NCBI GenBank assembly: GCA_002897895.1
Contig: BDSY01000041.1
Coordinates: 36,276-100,275, forward strand
DNA from: a bacterium BMS3Abin06
GTDB lineage: Bacteria; Nitrospirota; Thermodesulfovibrionia; UBA6902
Length of the DNA stretch: 64,000 bases
Direction: 5' to 3'
The translations under genes were made by a program, and so were the position numbers. Below, piece after piece: positions 20,798 to 44,963 of this stretch. Position 1 is the stretch's first letter. Every line of letters begins with the position of its first letter. The notes under the pieces were generated by a model. It did not search any database, had not been told where the DNA came from, and saw only the letters and a program-made list of their open reading frames with translations.

Positions 20798-23484
20798 GCC
20801 TTCTCCAGACGTATGGCGCATGCCTTATATTCCGCTGTGCCTGCAACAGGGTCAAAGGCATTATTGGTAATAACATTTGCGCAGGCCTCATGAAAATGAA
20901 AAGTCATAAAACAGACTCCCGAAGGCACTCGGTCGGTTACCCATACCCTGACTTTTACCTTGCCTCTGCGTGAGACAGCCATTACATAATCTCTGTCTTT
21001 AACATCAAGTTTCCCGGCGTCTTCCGGATTTATTTCCATTAATTCTTCGGGATGTATTTCATCAAATCCCGCGCATCTTCTTGTCTGTGTTCCGGTGTGG
21101 TACTGCCAGAGACGTCTTCCGGTAGTAAGCACAAACGGGTATTCTTCATCAGGACACTCAGCAGCCGGTTTCCACTCTGCAGGATAAAATCTGGCCCGGC
21201 CTTTTGGGAATGATCCATTTTTGTAAAGGTATTTTGTTCCGGTATGTTCAATGTCCGGGCACGGCCACTGAATGCCTTCATGTTCAATTCTTTCATAGGT
21301 TATTCCGGAAACAGAAGGGGTTAATTGACGGATTTCTTCCCATATCTGCTCTGCTGATCCGTATCCCATATCGCAGCCCATCCGTCCGGCAATCTCACCC
21401 GTAATCCACCAGTCGTCCTTTGCCATCCCCGGTGGCTCCACGGCCTTTCTTACTCGCTGTATACGTCTTTCAGTGTTCGTAAATGTCCCTTCTGTTTCAG
21501 CATAGCATGCAGCAGGCAAAACAACATCTGCGTATTCTGTGGTTTCATTCATGAAAATATCCTGCACTATAAGCAGATCAACATTCTCCAGTGCCTTGAT
21601 AGTGTGTGCCTGATTCGGTTCAGACATCACGACATTTTCACCTGCCAGGTAGAGTGCCTTTACATCACCGCAATGGATACCGTCGAACATGGCGGGTATC
21701 TTTGTGCCCTCTGAATCCGGCAGGGATTTTACTCCCCAGGCCTCTATAAATTTTTTTATTATTTCAGGATCAGCCGCCTTTTGATAGCCGGTGTAGACAT
21801 CGGGCAAAACCCCCATATCGCAGGCGCCCTGAACATTGTTCTGTCCTCTCAATGGATTCACACCCCCGCTTTCGATCCCCACATTGCCGAGAAGCATCTG
21901 CAGGTTGGCACAGGTTCTGACATTATCAGTGCCGGTGATGTGCTCTGTAATCCCAAGAGTATAGAAGAGTGCGACTTTTTCAGCTTTGCCGAGGATACTG
22001 GCAAGCTCCCTGATCTCATCTGTTGTGAGTCCGCATATCCCGGAGGCATATTCAGGGGAATATCCGCTTACAGTTTCTTTTAATTGATCGAATCCATCAG
22101 TATATTTATCAACAAACTCTCTGTCATACCATTCATTTTTAATGATCTCATGCATAACTGCATTAAGGAGCGCTATATCAGAGCCGACCCTGTGCTGAAA
22201 ATGTCTCGCCGCCCATCGTGTGAGCTCTATTTTTCTTGGATCTATTACTATAAGCCGGCTTCCTTTTTTCACCGCCCTTTTCATGAAGTAGGAAATTACA
22301 GGATGGGACTCTGATGTATTGGAACCGATCACAACGATAACCGGCACATTTTCAATTTCACGGATGGAATTTGTCATTGCTCCTGCACCGAGCGTGGAAG
22401 CCAGACCGGCTACCGTGGGGGCATGTCAGGTTCGTGCACAGTGGTCAACATTATTTGTGCCGATAACTGCGCGCATGAATTTCATCATTACGTAGTTGCT
22501 CTCGTTTGTAGACCTTGCGCACCCGATTCCTACTATGGCATCAGGGCCGTGGGCTTTTTTTATTTCCAGGAGTTTCCCTGCGGTAAAATCCAAAGCCTCT
22601 TCCCAGCTTACTTCTTCCAGTTTTCCGTTCTTTCTCAAAAGAGGCGATTTCAGGCGGTCCGATGAATGGACAAAATCATATCCGAATCTGCCCTTGATGC
22701 AGAGCGCGCCGTAATTCGGCTCCACATCTTCAACCCCGCTTACCTTTATAATCTCATTCTCCTTTACATGGAGGTTTATCTGGCATCCGACTCCGCAGTA
22801 CGGACAGGTAGTTCTGCTTTTTTCTGTTTCCCATGCCCTGGCTTTTCCAACGGCCTTTTTTTCAATCAGCGCCCCGGTCGGGCAGAGCTGTACGCATTCA
22901 CCGCATACTGCACAGGAGGATTTGCCCATTGGTTTGTTTGTATCACAGATGACCGTCATTTTACTTCCCCGGAAACCCATATCAAGCACTTCATTAACCG
23001 TAATATCATTGCATCCGGTAATGCATCTGTAGCACTGGATGCATTTATTCATGTCCCTGATTATCATGGGGCTTGATGTATCAACAGGCATATCTTTTTC
23101 TACAACCGGGAAACCGGATTTTTCTATTCCGAGATAATACGCAACCTCCTGGAGCTCACAGACGCCGTTTGCCTCGCATGAAATGCAGTTGTGTTTTCCA
23201 TTTGAGAGGTATAGTTCAACAATCATCTTCCTGGTCTCGGCAATTCTCTTTGTATTCGTATGTATTACCATGCCGTCTTTTGCCTCAAGAGAACATGAGA
23301 CCTGCAGTCCAGGCATATGCTCAACTTCAACAACACAAATTCTGCACTTGCCTGCCTGTCCGGTTTTTGGATGGTAACAAAGGGTGGGGATATAAATTCC
23401 GTTCTGCCTTGCTGCATTCAGTATGGAATTTCCTTTTACAGCCTGAACGGGTTTGCCGTCAATGTGAAGGGATATCTTTTCCAA
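20794..23484 (-). CDS. fdhA: Selenocysteine-containing formate dehydrogenase alpha subunit (about 896 aa)
   Basis: The two track ORFs join in frame across TGA 22426-22428: DHCART-U-HAPTVAGL; NuoG-like N-terminal Fe-S domains; CPYCGVGC; PLRGQNNVQG. Confidence 0.95.
22395..22425 (-). promoter_or_regulatory. SECIS element of fdhA
   Basis: After UGA: CATGCCCCCACGGTAGCCGGTCTGGCTTCC, similar in layout to the E. coli fdhF SECIS (stem with GGTCT apex). Confidence 0.75.
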
Positions 23485-40403: not shown

Positions 40404-40662
40404 ACGTAATTATCCTTATTTTAAAATAGAAAAAGCAAGAAACAGAAATTTTGTGTTGGAATTATAACATACTGATAGTTATTGACACAATTAGAAAATT
40501 TTATAGGTCAATTATGGGTAGTAAAAGACTTCCTGTTCCAATCTGATTCACTATTCCGGAGCATCGAATCAGATCTGTTTTAATGATAAATTATCCATGC
40601 TGCTTTCAGCAGCAGAAATAAATTATCTTGATTTTAGCATTGAATGATAATATAGTTTAATT

Positions 40663-40992
40663 ATGGATCGATCAGAAAATGATTCCAACATTGAATCCCG
40701 TCTCAGCTGGACAATAGTACTAAAGGCGCTGGCTGATGAAAATCGACTGCAGATTATCCATGAACTCCTGAGAGAGGAGGCGTCCGTACAGGATTTATCA
40801 AATAGCCTTGACATTAAGACATACAATATTTCAAAACACCTGAAAATATTGGAGACGAGCGGATTGGTCAGGAAAAGGAAAGTCGGTGTTCACAGAATCT
40901 ACCACATAACTGAAAAGTTAAGGTCCCGTATAACGGATGATAATCAGGTGCTGGATTTAGGCTGCTGCAAGTTTATATTCGGCAACCCCTGA
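40663..40992 (+). CDS. ArsR/SmtB-family regulator with C-terminal CC
   Basis: LKALADENRLQII, ISKHLKILETSGLV; LDLGCC tail. Confidence 0.88.
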   Translation: MDRSENDSNIESRLSWTIVLKALADENRLQIIHELLREEASVQDLSNSLDIKTYNISKHLKILETSGLVRKRKVGVHRIYHITEKLRSRITDDNQVLDLGCCKFIFGNP

Positions 40993-41062
40993 AATATAAA
41001 GCCCTCCGAACAGGAATTCAAGCAATCACTCTGTTTGTTTATCTGCCCGTACGACAGAAGTC

Positions 41063-41419
41063 TCATTCATTTTCTAAAGGAAGGTTAAGCGCTGTCCACT
41101 CATCTATTCCGCCCTCATATACCTTGACATTTGGAATATTGAGAAGTTTTAATCCAAGGGCAGCCTTCTTTGATGCAATGCAGTCTTTATGTTTGCAGTA
41201 GATAATGATTTCGTCAAATTCAGCCAGCTCGCTTCTTCTATCAACAACCTCCGGATACGGAACGGTTTTGGCTCCCTTAATCTTGTATTTGTTTCCATCA
41301 TACTTTGCTACTGTATCAACAATTACAAAATCAGAAGCGGATTTTTCATTAATTCGCCTCAAGAGTTCATCCTTATCTATACACTCTATGGACATATTAA
41401 AATTAATTTGATATGGCAT
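41063..41419 (-). CDS. Single-domain rhodanese (sulfurtransferase)
   Basis: IKGAKTVP, IIIYC active loop, VYEGGIDEW; GGAGG RBS. Confidence 0.85.
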   Translation of the reverse strand: MPYQINFNMSIECIDKDELLRRINEKSASDFVIVDTVAKYDGNKYKIKGAKTVPYPEVVDRRSELAEFDEIIIYCKHKDCIASKKAALGLKLLNIPNVKVYEGGIDEWTALNLPLENE

Positions 41420-41546
41420 TTTTCTCCTCCGTTAGTATTTGTTCAAAATAACATTTAATAAAAGATCAAGTCAATTTTATGCTTTTGAAAATATTCTTAC
41501 TGCTTAATCTGTTTATTTTATGATAACCATTCGGTTAAATTAAATT

Positions 41547-44500
41547 ATGGCGAAACATACAAAAAAATATGCGATGTTGATAAACCTTGAGAGGTGTGCC
41601 GGCTGTTTTGCCTGTCAGATAACCTGTAAAGCGGAATATAATATTCCCTTTGGAACTTTCCGGTGTAAAGTTGAAACATACCGGTCAGGCAGCTATCCGG
41701 AGATTGGCAAGTTTTTCCTGCCGCGCCTCTGCAATCACTGTGGCACGGCCCCCTGCATTGAAGCATGTGAAGAAAAGGCCTTGTTTAAAAATCAGGACGG
41801 CGTTGTCTTACTAAACAGCAACAAGTGCATCGGCTGTGGGATGTGCTTCGAAAAATGCCCCTATGATGCTATTGATCTGAATCCGGCCACCGGGCAGGCT
41901 GAAAAATGTGATTTTTGTTATGAAGGGCAGGTTATGAAAGGTCGTCCTCCGGTATGTGTGCAAAGTTGCATGGGCAAGGCAATTCTATTCGGCGACACAA
42001 ATGATAAAAACAGTGATATCTCAGTTGCACTCGGAAATCATAATATCAAGGCGCTTAAACCGGAACTTGCGACAAAACCTTCGGTTTTCTATGTGTTCAG
42101 GGGTGATACCGGTAATGCACCGCTGAAAGACCATAAAATAACTATCAGACATTCCATTACCCAAAAAGTCCGGGAAGAGCCTGAAAACCGGACAAATTTA
42201 GTATACACATCAGATGCCATGTGTCCGTCTGAATGCGGCATTTCAGTGCTTGTTGAAGATGGTGTTGCAAAGAAAATCTACGGAAATCCTCATACTTTGA
42301 TTAATAACGGAACTCTGTGCGCCAAAGGCGCATCAGGTCTTCAGCTCACTTATTCCCCTCACAGAATAAAAACCCCCCTGATAAGAACGGGCCGGCGGGG
42401 TGAAGAAAAATGGAAGGAGATTTCATGGGATGAAGCCATTGACTATATTGCTAAAAAATTAATTGAGATAAAAGAGAAATACGGGCCGGAATCAGTCTTT
42501 TTAGACTGCGGAGATGTTACTGACAGAGAGGCATATTACCGCCTCTTCCATGCATTCGGCACTCCCAATACATTCAACCACGGAAGCATTTGTGACCCTA
42601 ACCGCAGATGGGGACAGGGAATAATGATGGGTGACGAAAGGCCTCTGCCTGATATTCAAAGGCCGGTTCTCATGAGAAACAGTGAAGGTGCATTGCATCT
42701 TAAAAAAAATCATGATATCAAGCTTCTCCTGAATATCGGCGCAAATCCGCTTGTTGCTACAAGATTCAACTACATGTCAAACGGCATTCCCTCAGCCAGA
42801 GAAGAAAACGGCTGCACTTACATTGTTATAGACCCGGCCTATACCAATTCTGCCTCGCACGCCGACATATGGCTTCCGATAATACCCGGAACAGATGCAG
42901 CCCTGCTTGCAGCCATGCTGCATTATATTATCGGGAATGACTCCCCGGTTAATTCTTCGAAAAAATATATAGACCATGCTTTCCTTAAAAAATACACAAT
43001 GGGCTGGCAGGAATTTAAAGAATCATTTCTCGCACAAGCCGATAAAAAAGATCCCTCAAACGGTTTACAATTTTTTTCAATTGAATGGGCGGAGAACAAA
43101 ACAGGGATCACTGCCAATGAAATCAAAAAAATCTCACACTTGTTCGGTATTACAAAACCTGCGGCAATTGAAATCGGCATGCATGGTACATCTCACCATA
43201 CAAACGGAGATGTGACATCAATCCTCATGACAGCCCTTTGCCTTATAACCGGAAATGCAGACATTCCCGGCGGTCTTGTATTCATAGATTCCCAGAAGGC
43301 CAAAAAAGGCAATAGAACCGTTGGAAAAGAATTCCTGGATAAAGTTGTCACAAGGAAAATAAACGGCAGTCCTGTTTCAGGCAAGCTGTCGGAACTTCAC
43401 AAAGACCTCTACGGTGACTATCCGGCCGCATGGAAAGGAGTGCTGGCCGACCTTCCGGTAAAAATCAGGAAAGGAATAAATTTAAAATACGGTTCCTTTC
43501 AGGATTACAGCTATCCCATAAAGGCCTTTATAACAAGGGCTGGCAATCCGGTCATGACTGCCGGCAATACAGCGGAATGGAAAGATGCATTGACCTCCAG
43601 AGATGAAACCGGCGAATACCTGCTTGAACTGATGGTATTTATAGACACACATATAACTGAAAGCGGCAAATACGCTGATATCGTGCTGCCCGAGGCAGGT
43701 TTTCTTGAGCGGATGGGAGTAAGCGATGTCTATACCATGAGTCCTGAAATATCAATCAGGGACCAGGTAATAAAACCGCTTTATGAATCCAGGACGCCTT
43801 TTCAGTTCATGATTACCATGTCTGATTCGCTAATAAAGAACGGGGACCCAGATATTAAGGCCGAAGATTTTAAAATTAAATACAAAAGCGAAGAGGCATT
43901 TATAAACGAGATATTAAGTGAAGCTCCGGGATTTTATAATATCGGAGCCCCACTGCCTTATCCTGATCTTCCGGAGGGATCTCTGATAGCAGGAGTGCCG
44001 GATAATCCAGGGGCTGTGTGGGGAAACAAAACAATAAAAACCGGAGAGCTTTTAACTGTCGACTGGCTCAGAAAACACAATGGAGTTGCAGTATGGCCTG
44101 CAAGTTATCACAGGTATAAAAAATCAGACGGCTCTCCTTCGGGAATATATCCGAAGACTGCGTCAAAAAAATTTGAATTCAAATTCAGTTTCCTCGAAAA
44201 TATTAACAAAACATTCGGGACAGATTTTCCCACTACCTTTTACTGGTCCGAGTGTAAATGGAATCCGGGAAATCCTTTATATAAAAATATCAACACGGAA
44301 TATCCTTTTCAATTGATAAGCGGCAGGGTTCATCATGCAATGACAATGACAGCGGTCTGTCCATATCTTGCTGAAACAGACACTGAGTGCATGCAACCGG
44401 TCAACAACGATTTTCATTACAAAATGCCGGAACTTGAGAACATCCCGAATAAATACGGCCTTCAGGACAATAAAGATAATTTCTTCAAACAAGGCAGTTT

Positions 44501-44819
44501 GTCAATTCCTGTTTTTGCTTTTAATACAAAAGACGGGAAGAGGTTAGATCTGAAAACCGGCAACATTGTTTCTCTCGAAAATCCGTTTAAAAAACGGATC
44601 ACCGGAAAAGTTTTTTTAACGGACGAGATAATGCCGGGGGTAATTAAAACAGCCTTTGGGCCAGGAGGCCGGAAGGCTTCCGGAACAGGCTTTATGAATC
44701 ATACCTTTAACTACACGCCGAATATCAATGAACTTCACGACCCGGAAAACATATCGCCTTTTACCGGGATGCCCGCGTTTGGAGATATAATGGTCAAAGT
44801 TATTAAAGAAAGGAATTGA
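41547..44819 (+). CDS. Fusion of a 4x[4Fe-4S] (TtrB/PsrB/NrfC-type) domain and a Mo/W-bisPGD oxidoreductase catalytic domain
   Basis: N-terminal CAGCFAC..C, CNHC..PC..C, CIGCGMC..CP, KCDFC..C..C; then DAMCPSEC...LCAKG, RIKTPL, ISWDEA, HGSIC, ADIVLP, ISGR. Confidence 0.88.
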   Translation: MAKHTKKYAMLINLERCAGCFACQITCKAEYNIPFGTFRCKVETYRSGSYPEIGKFFLPRLCNHCGTAPCIEACEEKALFKNQDGVVLLNSNKCIGCGMCFEKCPYDAIDLNPATGQAEKCDFCYEGQVMKGRPPVCVQSCMGKAILFGDTNDKNSDISVALGNHNIKALKPELATKPSVFYVFRGDTGNAPLKDHKITIRHSITQKVREEPENRTNLVYTSDAMCPSECGISVLVEDGVAKKIYGNPHTLINNGTLCAKGASGLQLTYSPHRIKTPLIRTGRRGEEKWKEISWDEAIDYIAKKLIEIKEKYGPESVFLDCGDVTDREAYYRLFHAFGTPNTFNHGSICDPNRRWGQGIMMGDERPLPDIQRPVLMRNSEGALHLKKNHDIKLLLNIGANPLVATRFNYMSNGIPSAREENGCTYIVIDPAYTNSASHADIWLPIIPGTDAALLAAMLHYIIGNDSPVNSSKKYIDHAFLKKYTMGWQEFKESFLAQADKKDPSNGLQFFSIEWAENKTGITANEIKKISHLFGITKPAAIEIGMHGTSHHTNGDVTSILMTALCLITGNADIPGGLVFIDSQKAKKGNRTVGKEFLDKVVTRKINGSPVSGKLSELHKDLYGDYPAAWKGVLADLPVKIRKGINLKYGSFQDYSYPIKAFITRAGNPVMTAGNTAEWKDALTSRDETGEYLLELMVFIDTHITESGKYADIVLPEAGFLERMGVSDVYTMSPEISIRDQVIKPLYESRTPFQFMITMSDSLIKNGDPDIKAEDFKIKYKSEEAFINEILSEAPGFYNIGAPLPYPDLPEGSLIAGVPDNPGAVWGNKTIKTGELLTVDWLRKHNGVAVWPASYHRYKKSDGSPSGIYPKTASKKFEFKFSFLENINKTFGTDFPTTFYWSECKWNPGNPLYKNINTEYPFQLISGRVHHAMTMTAVCPYLAETDTECMQPVNNDFHYKMPELENIPNKYGLQDNKDNFFKQGSLSIPVFAFNTKDGKRLDLKTGNIVSLENPFKKRITGKVFLTDEIMPGVIKTAFGPGGRKASGTGFMNHTFNYTPNINELHDPENISPFTGMPAFGDIMVKVIKERN

Positions 44820-44963
44820 TCCCTGTTCAAATCAGCCGTTTGACGGCAGCATACTATTCAACCCTTGAAAAAACTTGATTTTATTGCTAAATTAACCTTC
44901 ACACGAATTACAATTCGTGTAATAGCTCAAATTTATCTTCTTTTTTGCATATGGTCATAAACT

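Follow-up and report, generated by a model that had tools for sequence, protein, structure and literature searches.

What is a complete four-cluster ferredoxin subunit doing in front of a molybdoenzyme catalytic subunit, in a single polypeptide that carries no export signal? This question is raised by a gene (positions 41547-44819, plus strand) in a 64,000-nucleotide stretch of the genome of bacterium BMS3Abin06 (Nitrospirota; Thermodesulfovibrionia; GenBank assembly GCA_002897895.1, contig BDSY01000041.1, positions 36,276 to 100,275), hereafter the window. The Psr, Phs, Ttr and Arr enzymes, which the 1090-amino acid (aa) product (P0001) resembles, are periplasmic respiratory enzymes, exported by the twin-arginine translocation (Tat) system and linked to quinol. 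Our analysis indicates, with high confidence, that the window encodes instead a cytoplasmic enzyme with a molybdenum or tungsten (Mo/W) center, in which the electron-transferring B and catalytic A subunits form one chain, and that this enzyme represents a new clade, the sister group of a Tat-exported enzyme similar to the MOLY system described below. As for what it does, the best explanation, to which we give about an even chance, is a self-contained cytoplasmic oxidoreductase with a bis(pyranopterin guanine dinucleotide) (bisPGD) cofactor, linked to an importer, switched by an ArsR-family regulator and acting on a small chalcogen or metalloid substrate.

The open reading frame (ORF) begins at the first start codon after the upstream stop, so that no longer N-terminus is possible. 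Pfam domains follow in the order Fer4_11 (residues 56-150), Molybdop_Fe4S4 (224-270), Molybdopterin (273-753) and Molydop_binding (993-1079); the last three make up the full domain set of the MopB superfamily, each above its Pfam cut-off (PF04879, 43 bits; PF00384, 117.8 bits; PF01568, 29.5 bits). The B domain aligns end to end (residues 7-183) with PsrB of Thermus thermophilus (2vpw_B, 137 bits) and also matches the TtrB (171.7 bits against a cut-off of 416) and NrfC (139 bits, likewise under the cut-off) profiles. Its 16 cysteines form four cluster motifs (C17/20/23/27, C62/65/70/74, C94/97/100/104 and C121/124/137/141). The A domain is almost equally close to PsrA (2vpw_A, 129.8 bits) and ArrA (6cz7_A, 127.4 bits) in the PDB search.

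Conservation of individual residues was assessed in an alignment of 41 members of the fused family and 14 sequences of its sister clade. All 16 cysteines of the B domain are invariant in the 41 fused proteins, whereas C226, C230, C258, H345, C349 and D350 of the A domain are invariant in both groups, and R353 is present in 40 of the 41 family members. At the position of the first ligand to the proximal cluster, 39/41 family members and 11/14 sister sequences have Asp and the remainder Cys, a peculiarity common to the two clades. The HGSIC(349)D segment, which the initial annotation of this stretch, made from the sequence alone, had likened to the Mo-ligand region of the Psr/Phs/Ttr/Arr enzymes, indeed aligns with the Cys stretches of PsrA ('SLCTAPRE') and ArrA ('HSSVCAEAHK'). 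The aligned cysteines of these two enzymes are Mo ligands, and C349 is predicted to bind the metal in the same way. AlphaFold2 with the family alignment yielded a confident model (mean predicted local distance difference test score, pLDDT, 93.2; predicted template modeling score 0.93), with the B and A domains docked, pLDDT of the B domain mostly at 91-96 and only the interdomain linker below 50. Foldseek matched this model to 199 PDB chains at E <= 0.001, with ArrA (E 6e-44), PsrA (5e-40) and acetylene hydratase (6.5e-38) as the top three, at about 20% identity, and methionine sulfoxide reductase MtsZ also among the top matches.

None of the usual attributes of export or membrane anchoring could be found. 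The N-terminus, MAKHTKKYAMLINLERCAGC, leads directly into the first cluster motif and contains no twin-arginine motif; in the Kyte-Doolittle profile of P0001, with 19-residue windows, the maximum is 1.44 and no window reaches 1.6. NrfD (PF03916) has one match in the whole 2.98-Mb assembly, on another contig (C93), and none on the contig of the enzyme. The gene neighborhood was compared across 20 loci from 20 related genomes, over some 7 kb in either direction as far as the contig extended, with the window as the 21st locus; no NrfD/PsrC gene was annotated among the neighbors at the 20 related loci. In the window, the enzyme gene is followed directly by pheA. ORF, Pfam and profile searches are therefore in agreement with the description of a 1090-aa B-A fusion without Tat leader or nearby anchor given in the initial annotation.

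Orthologs of the enzyme (63-89% identity) were detected in 37 of 41 related genomes, as 36 matches and one fragment at a contig end (G035, 64%). The four genomes that lack it (G025, G027, G039 and G040) are 94-100% complete and encode only distant paralogs. In the protein-cluster search, the 120 clusters listed are 62-100% identical to the enzyme, nearly all 1050-1160 aa long, and come from metagenome-assembled genomes of Nitrospirota/Thermodesulfovibrionia. Marine, groundwater and vent samples are the source of the hosts of the fused form, which are recorded as uncultured Nitrospirae or Thermodesulfovibrionia. When 251 genomes spread evenly over the phylum were sampled, four, all of the same order as the window, proved to encode the fused form, and nine genomes of other families encode a 49-50% identical relative that matches the A domain only; within this sample, the fusion is confined to one order of Thermodesulfovibrionia. 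Because the uninterrupted fusion recurs in many independent assemblies, it is not an assembly artefact, a concern raised at the outset and now settled by the relatives.

Profile scores place the enzyme, as far as sequence can tell, outside every curated family, within the Psr/Phs/Arr branch of the MopB superfamily, and support its initial description as a soluble-type, cytoplasmic B-A fusion of this branch. The score against the thiosulfate/polysulfide reductase model PhsA/PsrA (NF012032) is 252.3 bits, against a cut-off of 694. Other models score lower: DmsA/YnfE, 211 bits (cut-off 778); arsenate respiratory reductase ArrA (NF041714), 155 bits (1600); NasC, 121 bits (1100); and TtrA of the tetrathionate reductase models (NF011567, NF011569), 110 bits (1750). 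The Tat leader on the A subunit and the NrfD/PsrC subunit that define PhsA/PsrA operons are missing from the enzyme as well. Every curated cut-off is likewise missed by the sister sequences and by five further close relatives. In ArrA, the LLRGRYSH stretch binds arsenate; the enzyme has 'LDCGDVTD' at this position, within a family motif, 'GDVTDRE', that looks invariant, and because this motif stands where ArrA has LLRGRYSH, the fused family is not an ArrA.

In a HMMER scan of 1.84 billion representative proteins, the family corresponds to one representative at 50% identity (P0112), and the next full-length relative is P0124 (48%), an A subunit of 948 aa that lacks a B domain and carries a canonical Tat leader (MQISRRLFLQ...). 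By source names, the P0124 family is spread over Nitrospirota, Thermodesulfobacteriota, Desulfobulbaceae, Gamma- and Betaproteobacteria, Deferribacterales and Peptococcaceae, and includes proteins of Neomoorella humiferrea and Desulfitobacterium hafniense DCB-2. We built a maximum-likelihood tree from 67 A domains, all of unnamed database proteins, and midpoint-rooted it for drawing; in it, the 41 fused sequences (support 96) form the sister group of 14 Tat-bearing sequences (support 100), with support of 100 for the joint clade. Five unfused proteins adjoin this clade, and the one whose N-terminus was read (P0126) has no Tat leader. A phylogeny of the kind envisaged in the initial annotation, here among unnamed proteins, gives the fusion a clade of its own. 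The sister clade is 46-49% identical to the enzyme and has the GDVTDR and HG[SA]ICD motifs in common with it. At all five sister loci, from five genomes of the same class, genes for a B subunit (221-227 aa), a Tat-bearing A subunit and a Nitrate_red_del chaperone follow one another in this order and a gene for a membrane subunit is absent, whereas no such chaperone was found near the fused form at any of the 21 loci.

In this make-up alone, the sister clade resembles the MOLY cluster (MolyA, MolyB and the TorD/DmsD-like MolyC), which also combines B, a signal-bearing A and a chaperone without an anchor and which, in the portions of PMC9676032 and PMC12998232 that concern it, is a candidate for sulfur disproportionation identified by comparative genomics and expression, without enzymology. 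Compared with MOLY as outlined there, the window enzyme is fused and lacks both a signal peptide and an adjacent chaperone, so it should work on the other side of the membrane. Because B already precedes A in the sister operon, it would be simplest to suppose that the Tat leader and the chaperone were lost and that B and A then fused; the fused clade would derive from a Tat-exported, anchor-less, MOLY-like enzyme consisting of B, A and a chaperone.

Two further loci bear on this group. On contig C11 of the host genome (L072, 5600-9764, minus strand), an apparent second fused paralog proved to be a periplasmic pair of the classical type, with separate Tat-B (SISRRDIIK) and 839-aa Tat-A (LTRRNFMKF) genes in the same frame with stop codons between them, and was rejected; the only Nitrate_red_del chaperone of the genome lies next on this contig (C11:27621-27998), making this a second anchor-less MOLY-like cluster. 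In G035, a second B-A-like open frame (C36:2-2555, minus strand; 43-54% identity) accompanies the ortholog fragment and is possibly a divergent fused paralog.

Besides MOLY, three known systems are close to the enzyme. With PsrABC of T. thermophilus (2VPW), it shares whole-length similarity to PsrB, a Foldseek match to PsrA (template modeling score 0.79 on the target), the position of the ligand Cys and the cluster chain; it differs in being one B-A polypeptide without Tat leader or PsrC/NrfD partner, in an A domain about 140 residues longer, in the Asp at the proximal cluster and in identity of only about 21%. ArrAB, a soluble enzyme of A and B subunits without a membrane subunit, is the best Foldseek match (Shewanella sp. 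ANA-3, 6CZ7) and has the H-x-S-x-C pattern around the ligand Cys in common with the enzyme; unlike the window protein, ArrA is periplasmic and Tat-exported, and its 'RGRY' is replaced by GDVTD here. ActB of alternative complex III likewise joins a MopB fold and a PsrB-like ferredoxin in one polypeptide, and two of its structures (6f0k_B, 6btm_B) match the B domain. In the passages of PMC10100899 devoted to it, ActB is without the Mo/W cofactor and has lost three clusters, whereas the window enzyme keeps all cofactor-binding features. The literature searched, mostly outside subscription journals, yielded no account of the fused form or of the permease fusion presented next.

The gene neighborhoods point to a partner that was not part of the initial annotation. 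Components of an ATP-binding cassette (ABC) importer flank the enzyme gene at 9 of the 20 related loci: an ATPase and two BPD_transp_1 permeases directly upstream (L023, L027, L029, L038), an ATPase downstream (L030), an SBP_bac_3 binding protein directly upstream (L026, L040), or the second permease fused in frame to the enzyme (L033, L034; 1363-1364 aa). The ABC genes were identified by Pfam in members from L027, L034 and L040 and by clustering at the other loci. Fusions of this kind, 1359-1369 aa long with BPD_transp_1 in front, account for 13 of the 120 best clusters listed, and permease and enzyme occupy one open frame in three of the related genomes (G018, G021, G022). Among the 37 enzyme-bearing genomes, a permease ortholog is adjacent or fused to the enzyme in 13 (G004, G017, G018, G021, G022, G024, G026, G029, G031, G033, G035, G037 and G038), that is, in 5/5 genomes of family f3, 2/7 of f5 and six of f1; with the binding protein in G030 and G036 and the ATPase in G015, importer adjacency amounts to 16/37. 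A permease ortholog was detected anywhere in the genome in 33 of the 37, as opposed to none of the four enzyme-less genomes, which likewise lack the binding protein.

By profile, the importer qualifies as a polar amino acid uptake (PAAT) type transporter (His/Glu/Gln/Arg/opine). The two permeases score 64.1 and 67.6 bits against TIGR01726 (HEQRo; cut-off 42.2), the ATPase is GlnQ-like (334 bits, against an equivalog cut-off of 379), and the SBP_bac_3 match of the binding protein is 119 bits. A cystine-type importer was also considered and is unsupported: the cystine permease model is the best match of both permeases, though a weak one (112 and 130 bits; cut-off 300), and the binding protein is Gln/Arg-like. 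Together with ArsR, this importer is the steadiest partner of the enzyme, rather than the rhodanese favored initially, and a functional tie between enzyme and importer is moderately supported.

The permease fusions are also informative about location. The fused permease of P0108 has five hydrophobic stretches, with an ETALASG...ILP-type loop, presumably the one that contacts the cytoplasmic ATPase, between the third and fourth. The linker past the fifth stretch contains 14 Lys/Arg residues, which, under the positive-inside rule, fits the cytoplasmic side, and the membrane-helix threshold is not reached in any 19-residue window across the B-A part of P0108. The missing Tat leader, the lack of a hydrophobic segment, the topology of the permease fusion and the cofactor load together make a cytoplasmic location of the enzyme well supported, and the fused forms are predicted to be held at the membrane beside the transporter. 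The nearest known logic for an importer next to a cytoplasmic molybdoenzyme may be that of cyanobacterial nrtABCD and narB, where the anion brought in by an ABC importer is consumed by a cytoplasmic MopB reductase encoded beside it. The analogy has limits: the transporter there is of the NrtA type rather than the HisQM/GlnPQ type, and NarB has neither a four-cluster domain nor a permease fusion.

At two loci, from two genomes of family f5, the ABC-enzyme operon is preceded by a winged-helix gene and a NusG paralog, with an FdhD/NarQ-family gene in divergent orientation to them (L023, 1380-3847; L039, 10720-12738). FdhD sulfurates the bisPGD cofactor of formate dehydrogenases, and the FdhD-family neighbor may mature the enzyme.

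The second steady neighbor, a regulator of the ArsR/SmtB family, adjoins the enzyme gene at 11 of the 20 related loci (12/21 with the window). In L025, L030, L031 and L037, it immediately precedes the enzyme gene in the same orientation, and L027 has the order arsR, ATPase, permease, permease, enzyme on one strand. The only cysteines of the window protein are the vicinal pair C101-C102 in LDLGCCKF, and LDLGCC is conserved in 12/12 aligned copies. The protein was initially described as ending with this motif; the motif is present, but seven residues (KFIFGNP) follow it. Arsenite-sensing ArsR proteins use three Cys and the persulfide sensors BigR/SqrR two distant ones; among subtype models, BigR scores 40.7 bits and the Rv2640c family 38.9 bits, both against a cut-off of 155. 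Control of the enzyme gene by ArsR is moderately supported: the regulator is a frequent neighbor with a constant Cys pair, as the proposal of an ArsR-controlled module would have it, but it is not found at every locus.

A TTGATTTT...TATAnT arrangement recurs, judged by eye, upstream of arsR in several relatives. Upstream of the promoter-like site of the window arsR lie two near-palindromic words 32 bp apart, GATAAATTATC and AATAAATTATC (40585-40627, starting at 40585 and 40617); words like GATAAATTATC are not conserved upstream of arsR in the relatives. GATAAnTTATC, which occurs twice upstream of the window arsR, was rejected as an ArsR operator because its count in the window is 3 against 3.9 expected and it is unconserved upstream of arsR or the enzyme in 11 relatives. 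No conserved operator was found in the intergenic region between the rhodanese and enzyme genes.

Taken together, these features are consistent with the following scheme for a cytoplasmic, importer-linked oxidoreductase. Electrons from a cytoplasmic or membrane-associated donor would enter the four clusters of the B domain and pass via the proximal cluster to the Mo/W center, where a small anionic chalcogen or metalloid substrate would be reduced inside the cell, or the reaction would run in reverse. The substrate would be delivered by the PAAT-type importer or be metabolically tied to it, and ArsR, through the Cys-Cys pair in its C-terminal part, would turn the operon on when the substrate, or a product that reacts with thiols, is present.

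Several observations weigh against this scheme. Neither the substrate nor the electron donor is named by any result, and the PDB and Foldseek comparisons hardly separate PsrA, ArrA and acetylene hydratase. The tree includes none of the references PsrA, PhsA, SrrA, TtrA, ArrA and MolyA and, for this reason, placement relative to named enzymes is by HMM and PDB scores. As to the importer, no permease match was found in four enzyme-bearing genomes that are 78-95% complete (G001, G003, G009, G011), and the co-occurrence of permease and enzyme is confounded by descent because the four enzyme-less genomes represent four other families. G017, G018, G021 and G022 contain a second, free-standing permease copy. 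In the host genome, the link is one of homology, because contig C107 carries the ATPase and two permeases and contig C56 (6638-7534) the binding protein, away from the enzyme gene; the C107 permeases are the only PAAT-type pair found in this genome. The closest solved relatives of the binding protein are generic Gln/Arg binders (AncQR best, 119 bits). The importer could serve housekeeping amino acid uptake, its adjacency to the enzyme being historical.

Carried to its end, this line of argument makes the neighbors uninformative remnants of old gene order around an enzyme with an unrelated substrate, such as an S- or N-oxide, for instance free methionine sulfoxide entering through a glutamine-type importer, or with a non-redox reaction. 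The generic Gln/Arg type of the importer, including the sub-threshold GlnQ score, fits such a history, as does the presence of acetylene hydratase and MtsZ among the top structural matches. The pheA operon is found downstream of the enzyme in 9/20 loci, no less often than the importer genes, and this association, which we treat as plain synteny, is surely non-functional. However, in-frame fusions present in at least three genera and in 13 of the 120 clusters listed would be hard to keep without functional compatibility; importer adjacency extends across three families despite differing flanks; and the invariant Cys of the enzyme contrasts with S-oxide reductases, which use a Ser ligand. We consider this alternative improbable. 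At the other extreme, the importer might pass what it imports straight on to a Psr/Arr-type reductase that is tethered or fused to the permease, making a transport-coupled molybdoenzyme. The imported cargo would be a sulfane or thiosulfonate compound borne on an amino acid, for example cysteine polysulfide or S-sulfocysteine, or an organo-arsenical that the ArsS/ArsM-like genes discussed below make or use. Such coupling is a long shot. If true, it would amount to intracellular sulfur or metalloid reduction in Dsr-bearing Nitrospirota, a process that is periplasmic in other bacteria, and the triple fusion of permease, ferredoxin and molybdoenzyme would count as a novel enzyme architecture.

The third neighbor in the window is a single-domain rhodanese divergent from the enzyme gene and next to arsR, as initially described. 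Its loop, YCK[HE][KR][DST]C, including C75, is conserved in 7/7 copies, and rhodanese activity is predicted. The gene is present at 6 of the 20 related loci (7/21 with the window), all of family f1. In every case it is found between arsR and the enzyme gene, immediately upstream of the enzyme operon and transcribed divergently from it. Downstream on the rhodanese strand are amylase/isoamylase-type genes (L022, L024, L034) or an AmiA-like gene (L035), and the rhodanese looks like part of a cassette inserted on the opposite strand. Conservation of the rhodanese/ArsR neighborhood, expected if the module were real, is therefore partial: ArsR is a frequent neighbor, whereas the rhodanese is restricted to one family. 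In the window, the rhodanese is a lineage-specific accessory, rather than a core component, and may have a role in sulfur relay or cofactor maturation.

This distribution bears on the model of the initial annotation, in which a cytoplasmic polysulfide/thiosulfate reductase is supplied with sulfane sulfur by the rhodanese and controlled by a persulfide-sensing ArsR. The sulfur chemistry has its own merits: PhsA is the best curated HMM match and the Cys ligand is present; the rhodanese, where present, keeps its divergent upstream position and its Cys loop; the host encodes Dsr (dsrA, 537 bits against a cut-off of 393); and the sister clade has the make-up of MOLY, proposed for sulfur disproportionation in the parts of PMC9676032 and PMC12998232 on that cluster. 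Yet the PhsA score is far under the cut-off, ArrA is no more distant by the PDB search, and both the importer link and the permease fusions are left unexplained. The claim that the rhodanese feeds the enzyme is weak because the gene is present in 7/21 loci of a single family, as an opposite-strand insert accompanied by amylase/isoamylase-type or AmiA-like genes. We regard this model as unlikely; it is a special case of the importer-linked scheme, and the rhodanese is its weak leg.

A possible arsenic or selenium chemistry is suggested by the neighbors of the importer itself. On contig C56 of the host genome (L071, 1167-10583, minus strand), genes for a histidine kinase, an NtrC-type regulator and the PAAT binding protein are followed on one strand by a gene for an ArsS-type radical S-adenosylmethionine (SAM) enzyme (TIGR04167, 394 bits; cut-off 300). 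After ArsS come a 378-aa ORF without NCBIfam hit, a SAM methyltransferase (DVU_1556 family, 104 bits against 155; arsenite methyltransferase, a weak 74 bits) and a second ArsS-like gene (241 bits, below the cut-off). In an anaerobe, this cluster may serve a pathway for organo-arsenicals or organo-selenium compounds. The binding protein adjoins ArsS in 11 genomes (G000, G002-G005, G012, G013, G018, G019 as a fragment, G022 and G023); two permease genes stand between the binding protein and ArsS in G010 and G015, and in G016 a gap of 1.7 kb separates the binding protein from ArsS. ArsS-like genes were found in 20/41 relatives (16/24 of f1, 1/5 of f3, 1/7 of f5). The linkage keeps an arsenic/selenium reading alive, but ArsS is rarest where enzyme-importer adjacency is strongest.

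On such a reading, the enzyme would be a cytoplasmic reductase of arsenate or a pentavalent organo-arsenical, operating with the importer, the ArsS/ArsM-like genes and an As(III)-type ArsR. The vicinal Cys pair of the regulator, ArrA as the top Foldseek match with its H-x-S-x-C stretch, and the C56 cluster with its counterparts in the relatives all speak for it. Against this stand the low ArrA HMM score, the replacement of the arsenate-binding stretch, the scarcity of ArsS in f3 and f5, and the near-universal presence and high conservation of the enzyme in the order, unlike a typical detoxification trait; moreover, the function of TIGR04167 members in anaerobes is only putative. We consider an arsenic or selenium reductase of this kind hardly probable. 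The near-equal PsrA and ArrA scores leave unproven the polysulfide/thiosulfate or Se/As oxyanion substrate that had been assigned to the enzyme. With respect to the preferred importer-linked oxidoreductase, a sulfane- or thiosulfonate-type sulfur compound, inorganic or amino acid-borne, is a plausible substrate class, at somewhat less than an even chance; a substrate outside both classes is just as probable, and an arsenic or selenium compound distinctly less so.

Whatever the substrate, machinery of the Psr/Phs/Ttr/Arr type has been moved to the cytoplasm, with its subunits welded together, repeatedly tied to an importer and near-universal in one order. This points to an undescribed intracellular sulfur or metalloid step in hosts with few cultured members, common inhabitants of sediments, aquifers and vents. 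The enzyme is also a testable relative of the MOLY enzymes, which are discussed as markers of sulfur disproportionation, and, as a natural single-chain B-A construct, it could be easier to express than multi-subunit enzymes. The features of the locus are collected in Table 1.

Table 1. Features of the fused enzyme gene and its surroundings, in window coordinates
Feature	Position	Strand	Description
Sigma-70-like promoter TTGATT-17-TATAGT	40628..40656	+	Upstream of arsR; consensus scan, 9/12 matches
ArsR/SmtB-family regulator, 109 aa	40663..40992	+	HTH_5, 41.7 bits; NF033788, 73.8 bits (cut-off 55)
Single-domain rhodanese, 118 aa	41063..41419	-	Loop YC(75)KHKDC(80); PF00581, 42.5 bits (cut-off 22.2)
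Divergent intergenic region, rhodanese/enzyme	41420..41546	.	Weak inverted repeat 41431-41448 / 41483-41500, 78% complementary
B domain, residues 1-200	41547..42146	+	Four [4Fe-4S] motifs, PsrB/NrfC/TtrB-like
Linker, residues 204-214	42156..42188	+	Sole AlphaFold2 segment with pLDDT <50
A domain, residues 216-1090 and stop codon	42192..44819	+	Predicted Mo/W-bisPGD catalytic subunit, Psr/Phs/Arr-like, ~875 aa
FS0 cluster motif D223-x2-C226-x3-C230...C258	42213..42320	+	Asp replaces first Cys; from alignment to PsrA
Presumed Mo/W ligand motif H345-G-S-I-C349-D350-P-N-R353-R354	42579..42608	+	Aligned with PsrA and ArrA Cys stretch
Promoter-like site	44865-44893		Between enzyme gene and pheA
Palindromic hairpin, 10-bp	44899..44922	.	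Between enzyme gene and pheA

The hairpin and the promoter-like site downstream of the enzyme gene suggest that pheA belongs to a separate transcription unit. Its product matches prephenate dehydratase (300 bits; cut-off 219) and has a chorismate mutase domain, and the genes that follow are hisC, a DAHP (3-deoxy-D-arabino-heptulosonate 7-phosphate) synthase gene, a prephenate dehydrogenase gene and aroA. The host genome encodes further MopB proteins: a 1141-aa open frame on contig C87 (G000:C87:39561-41603, plus strand) scores 262 bits against the PhsA model, and a catalytic gene elsewhere in the window (21349-22917, minus strand; G000:C41:57624-59192), with one in-frame TGA and 204 bits against the same model, probably encodes a selenocysteine-containing enzyme of the formate dehydrogenase type.

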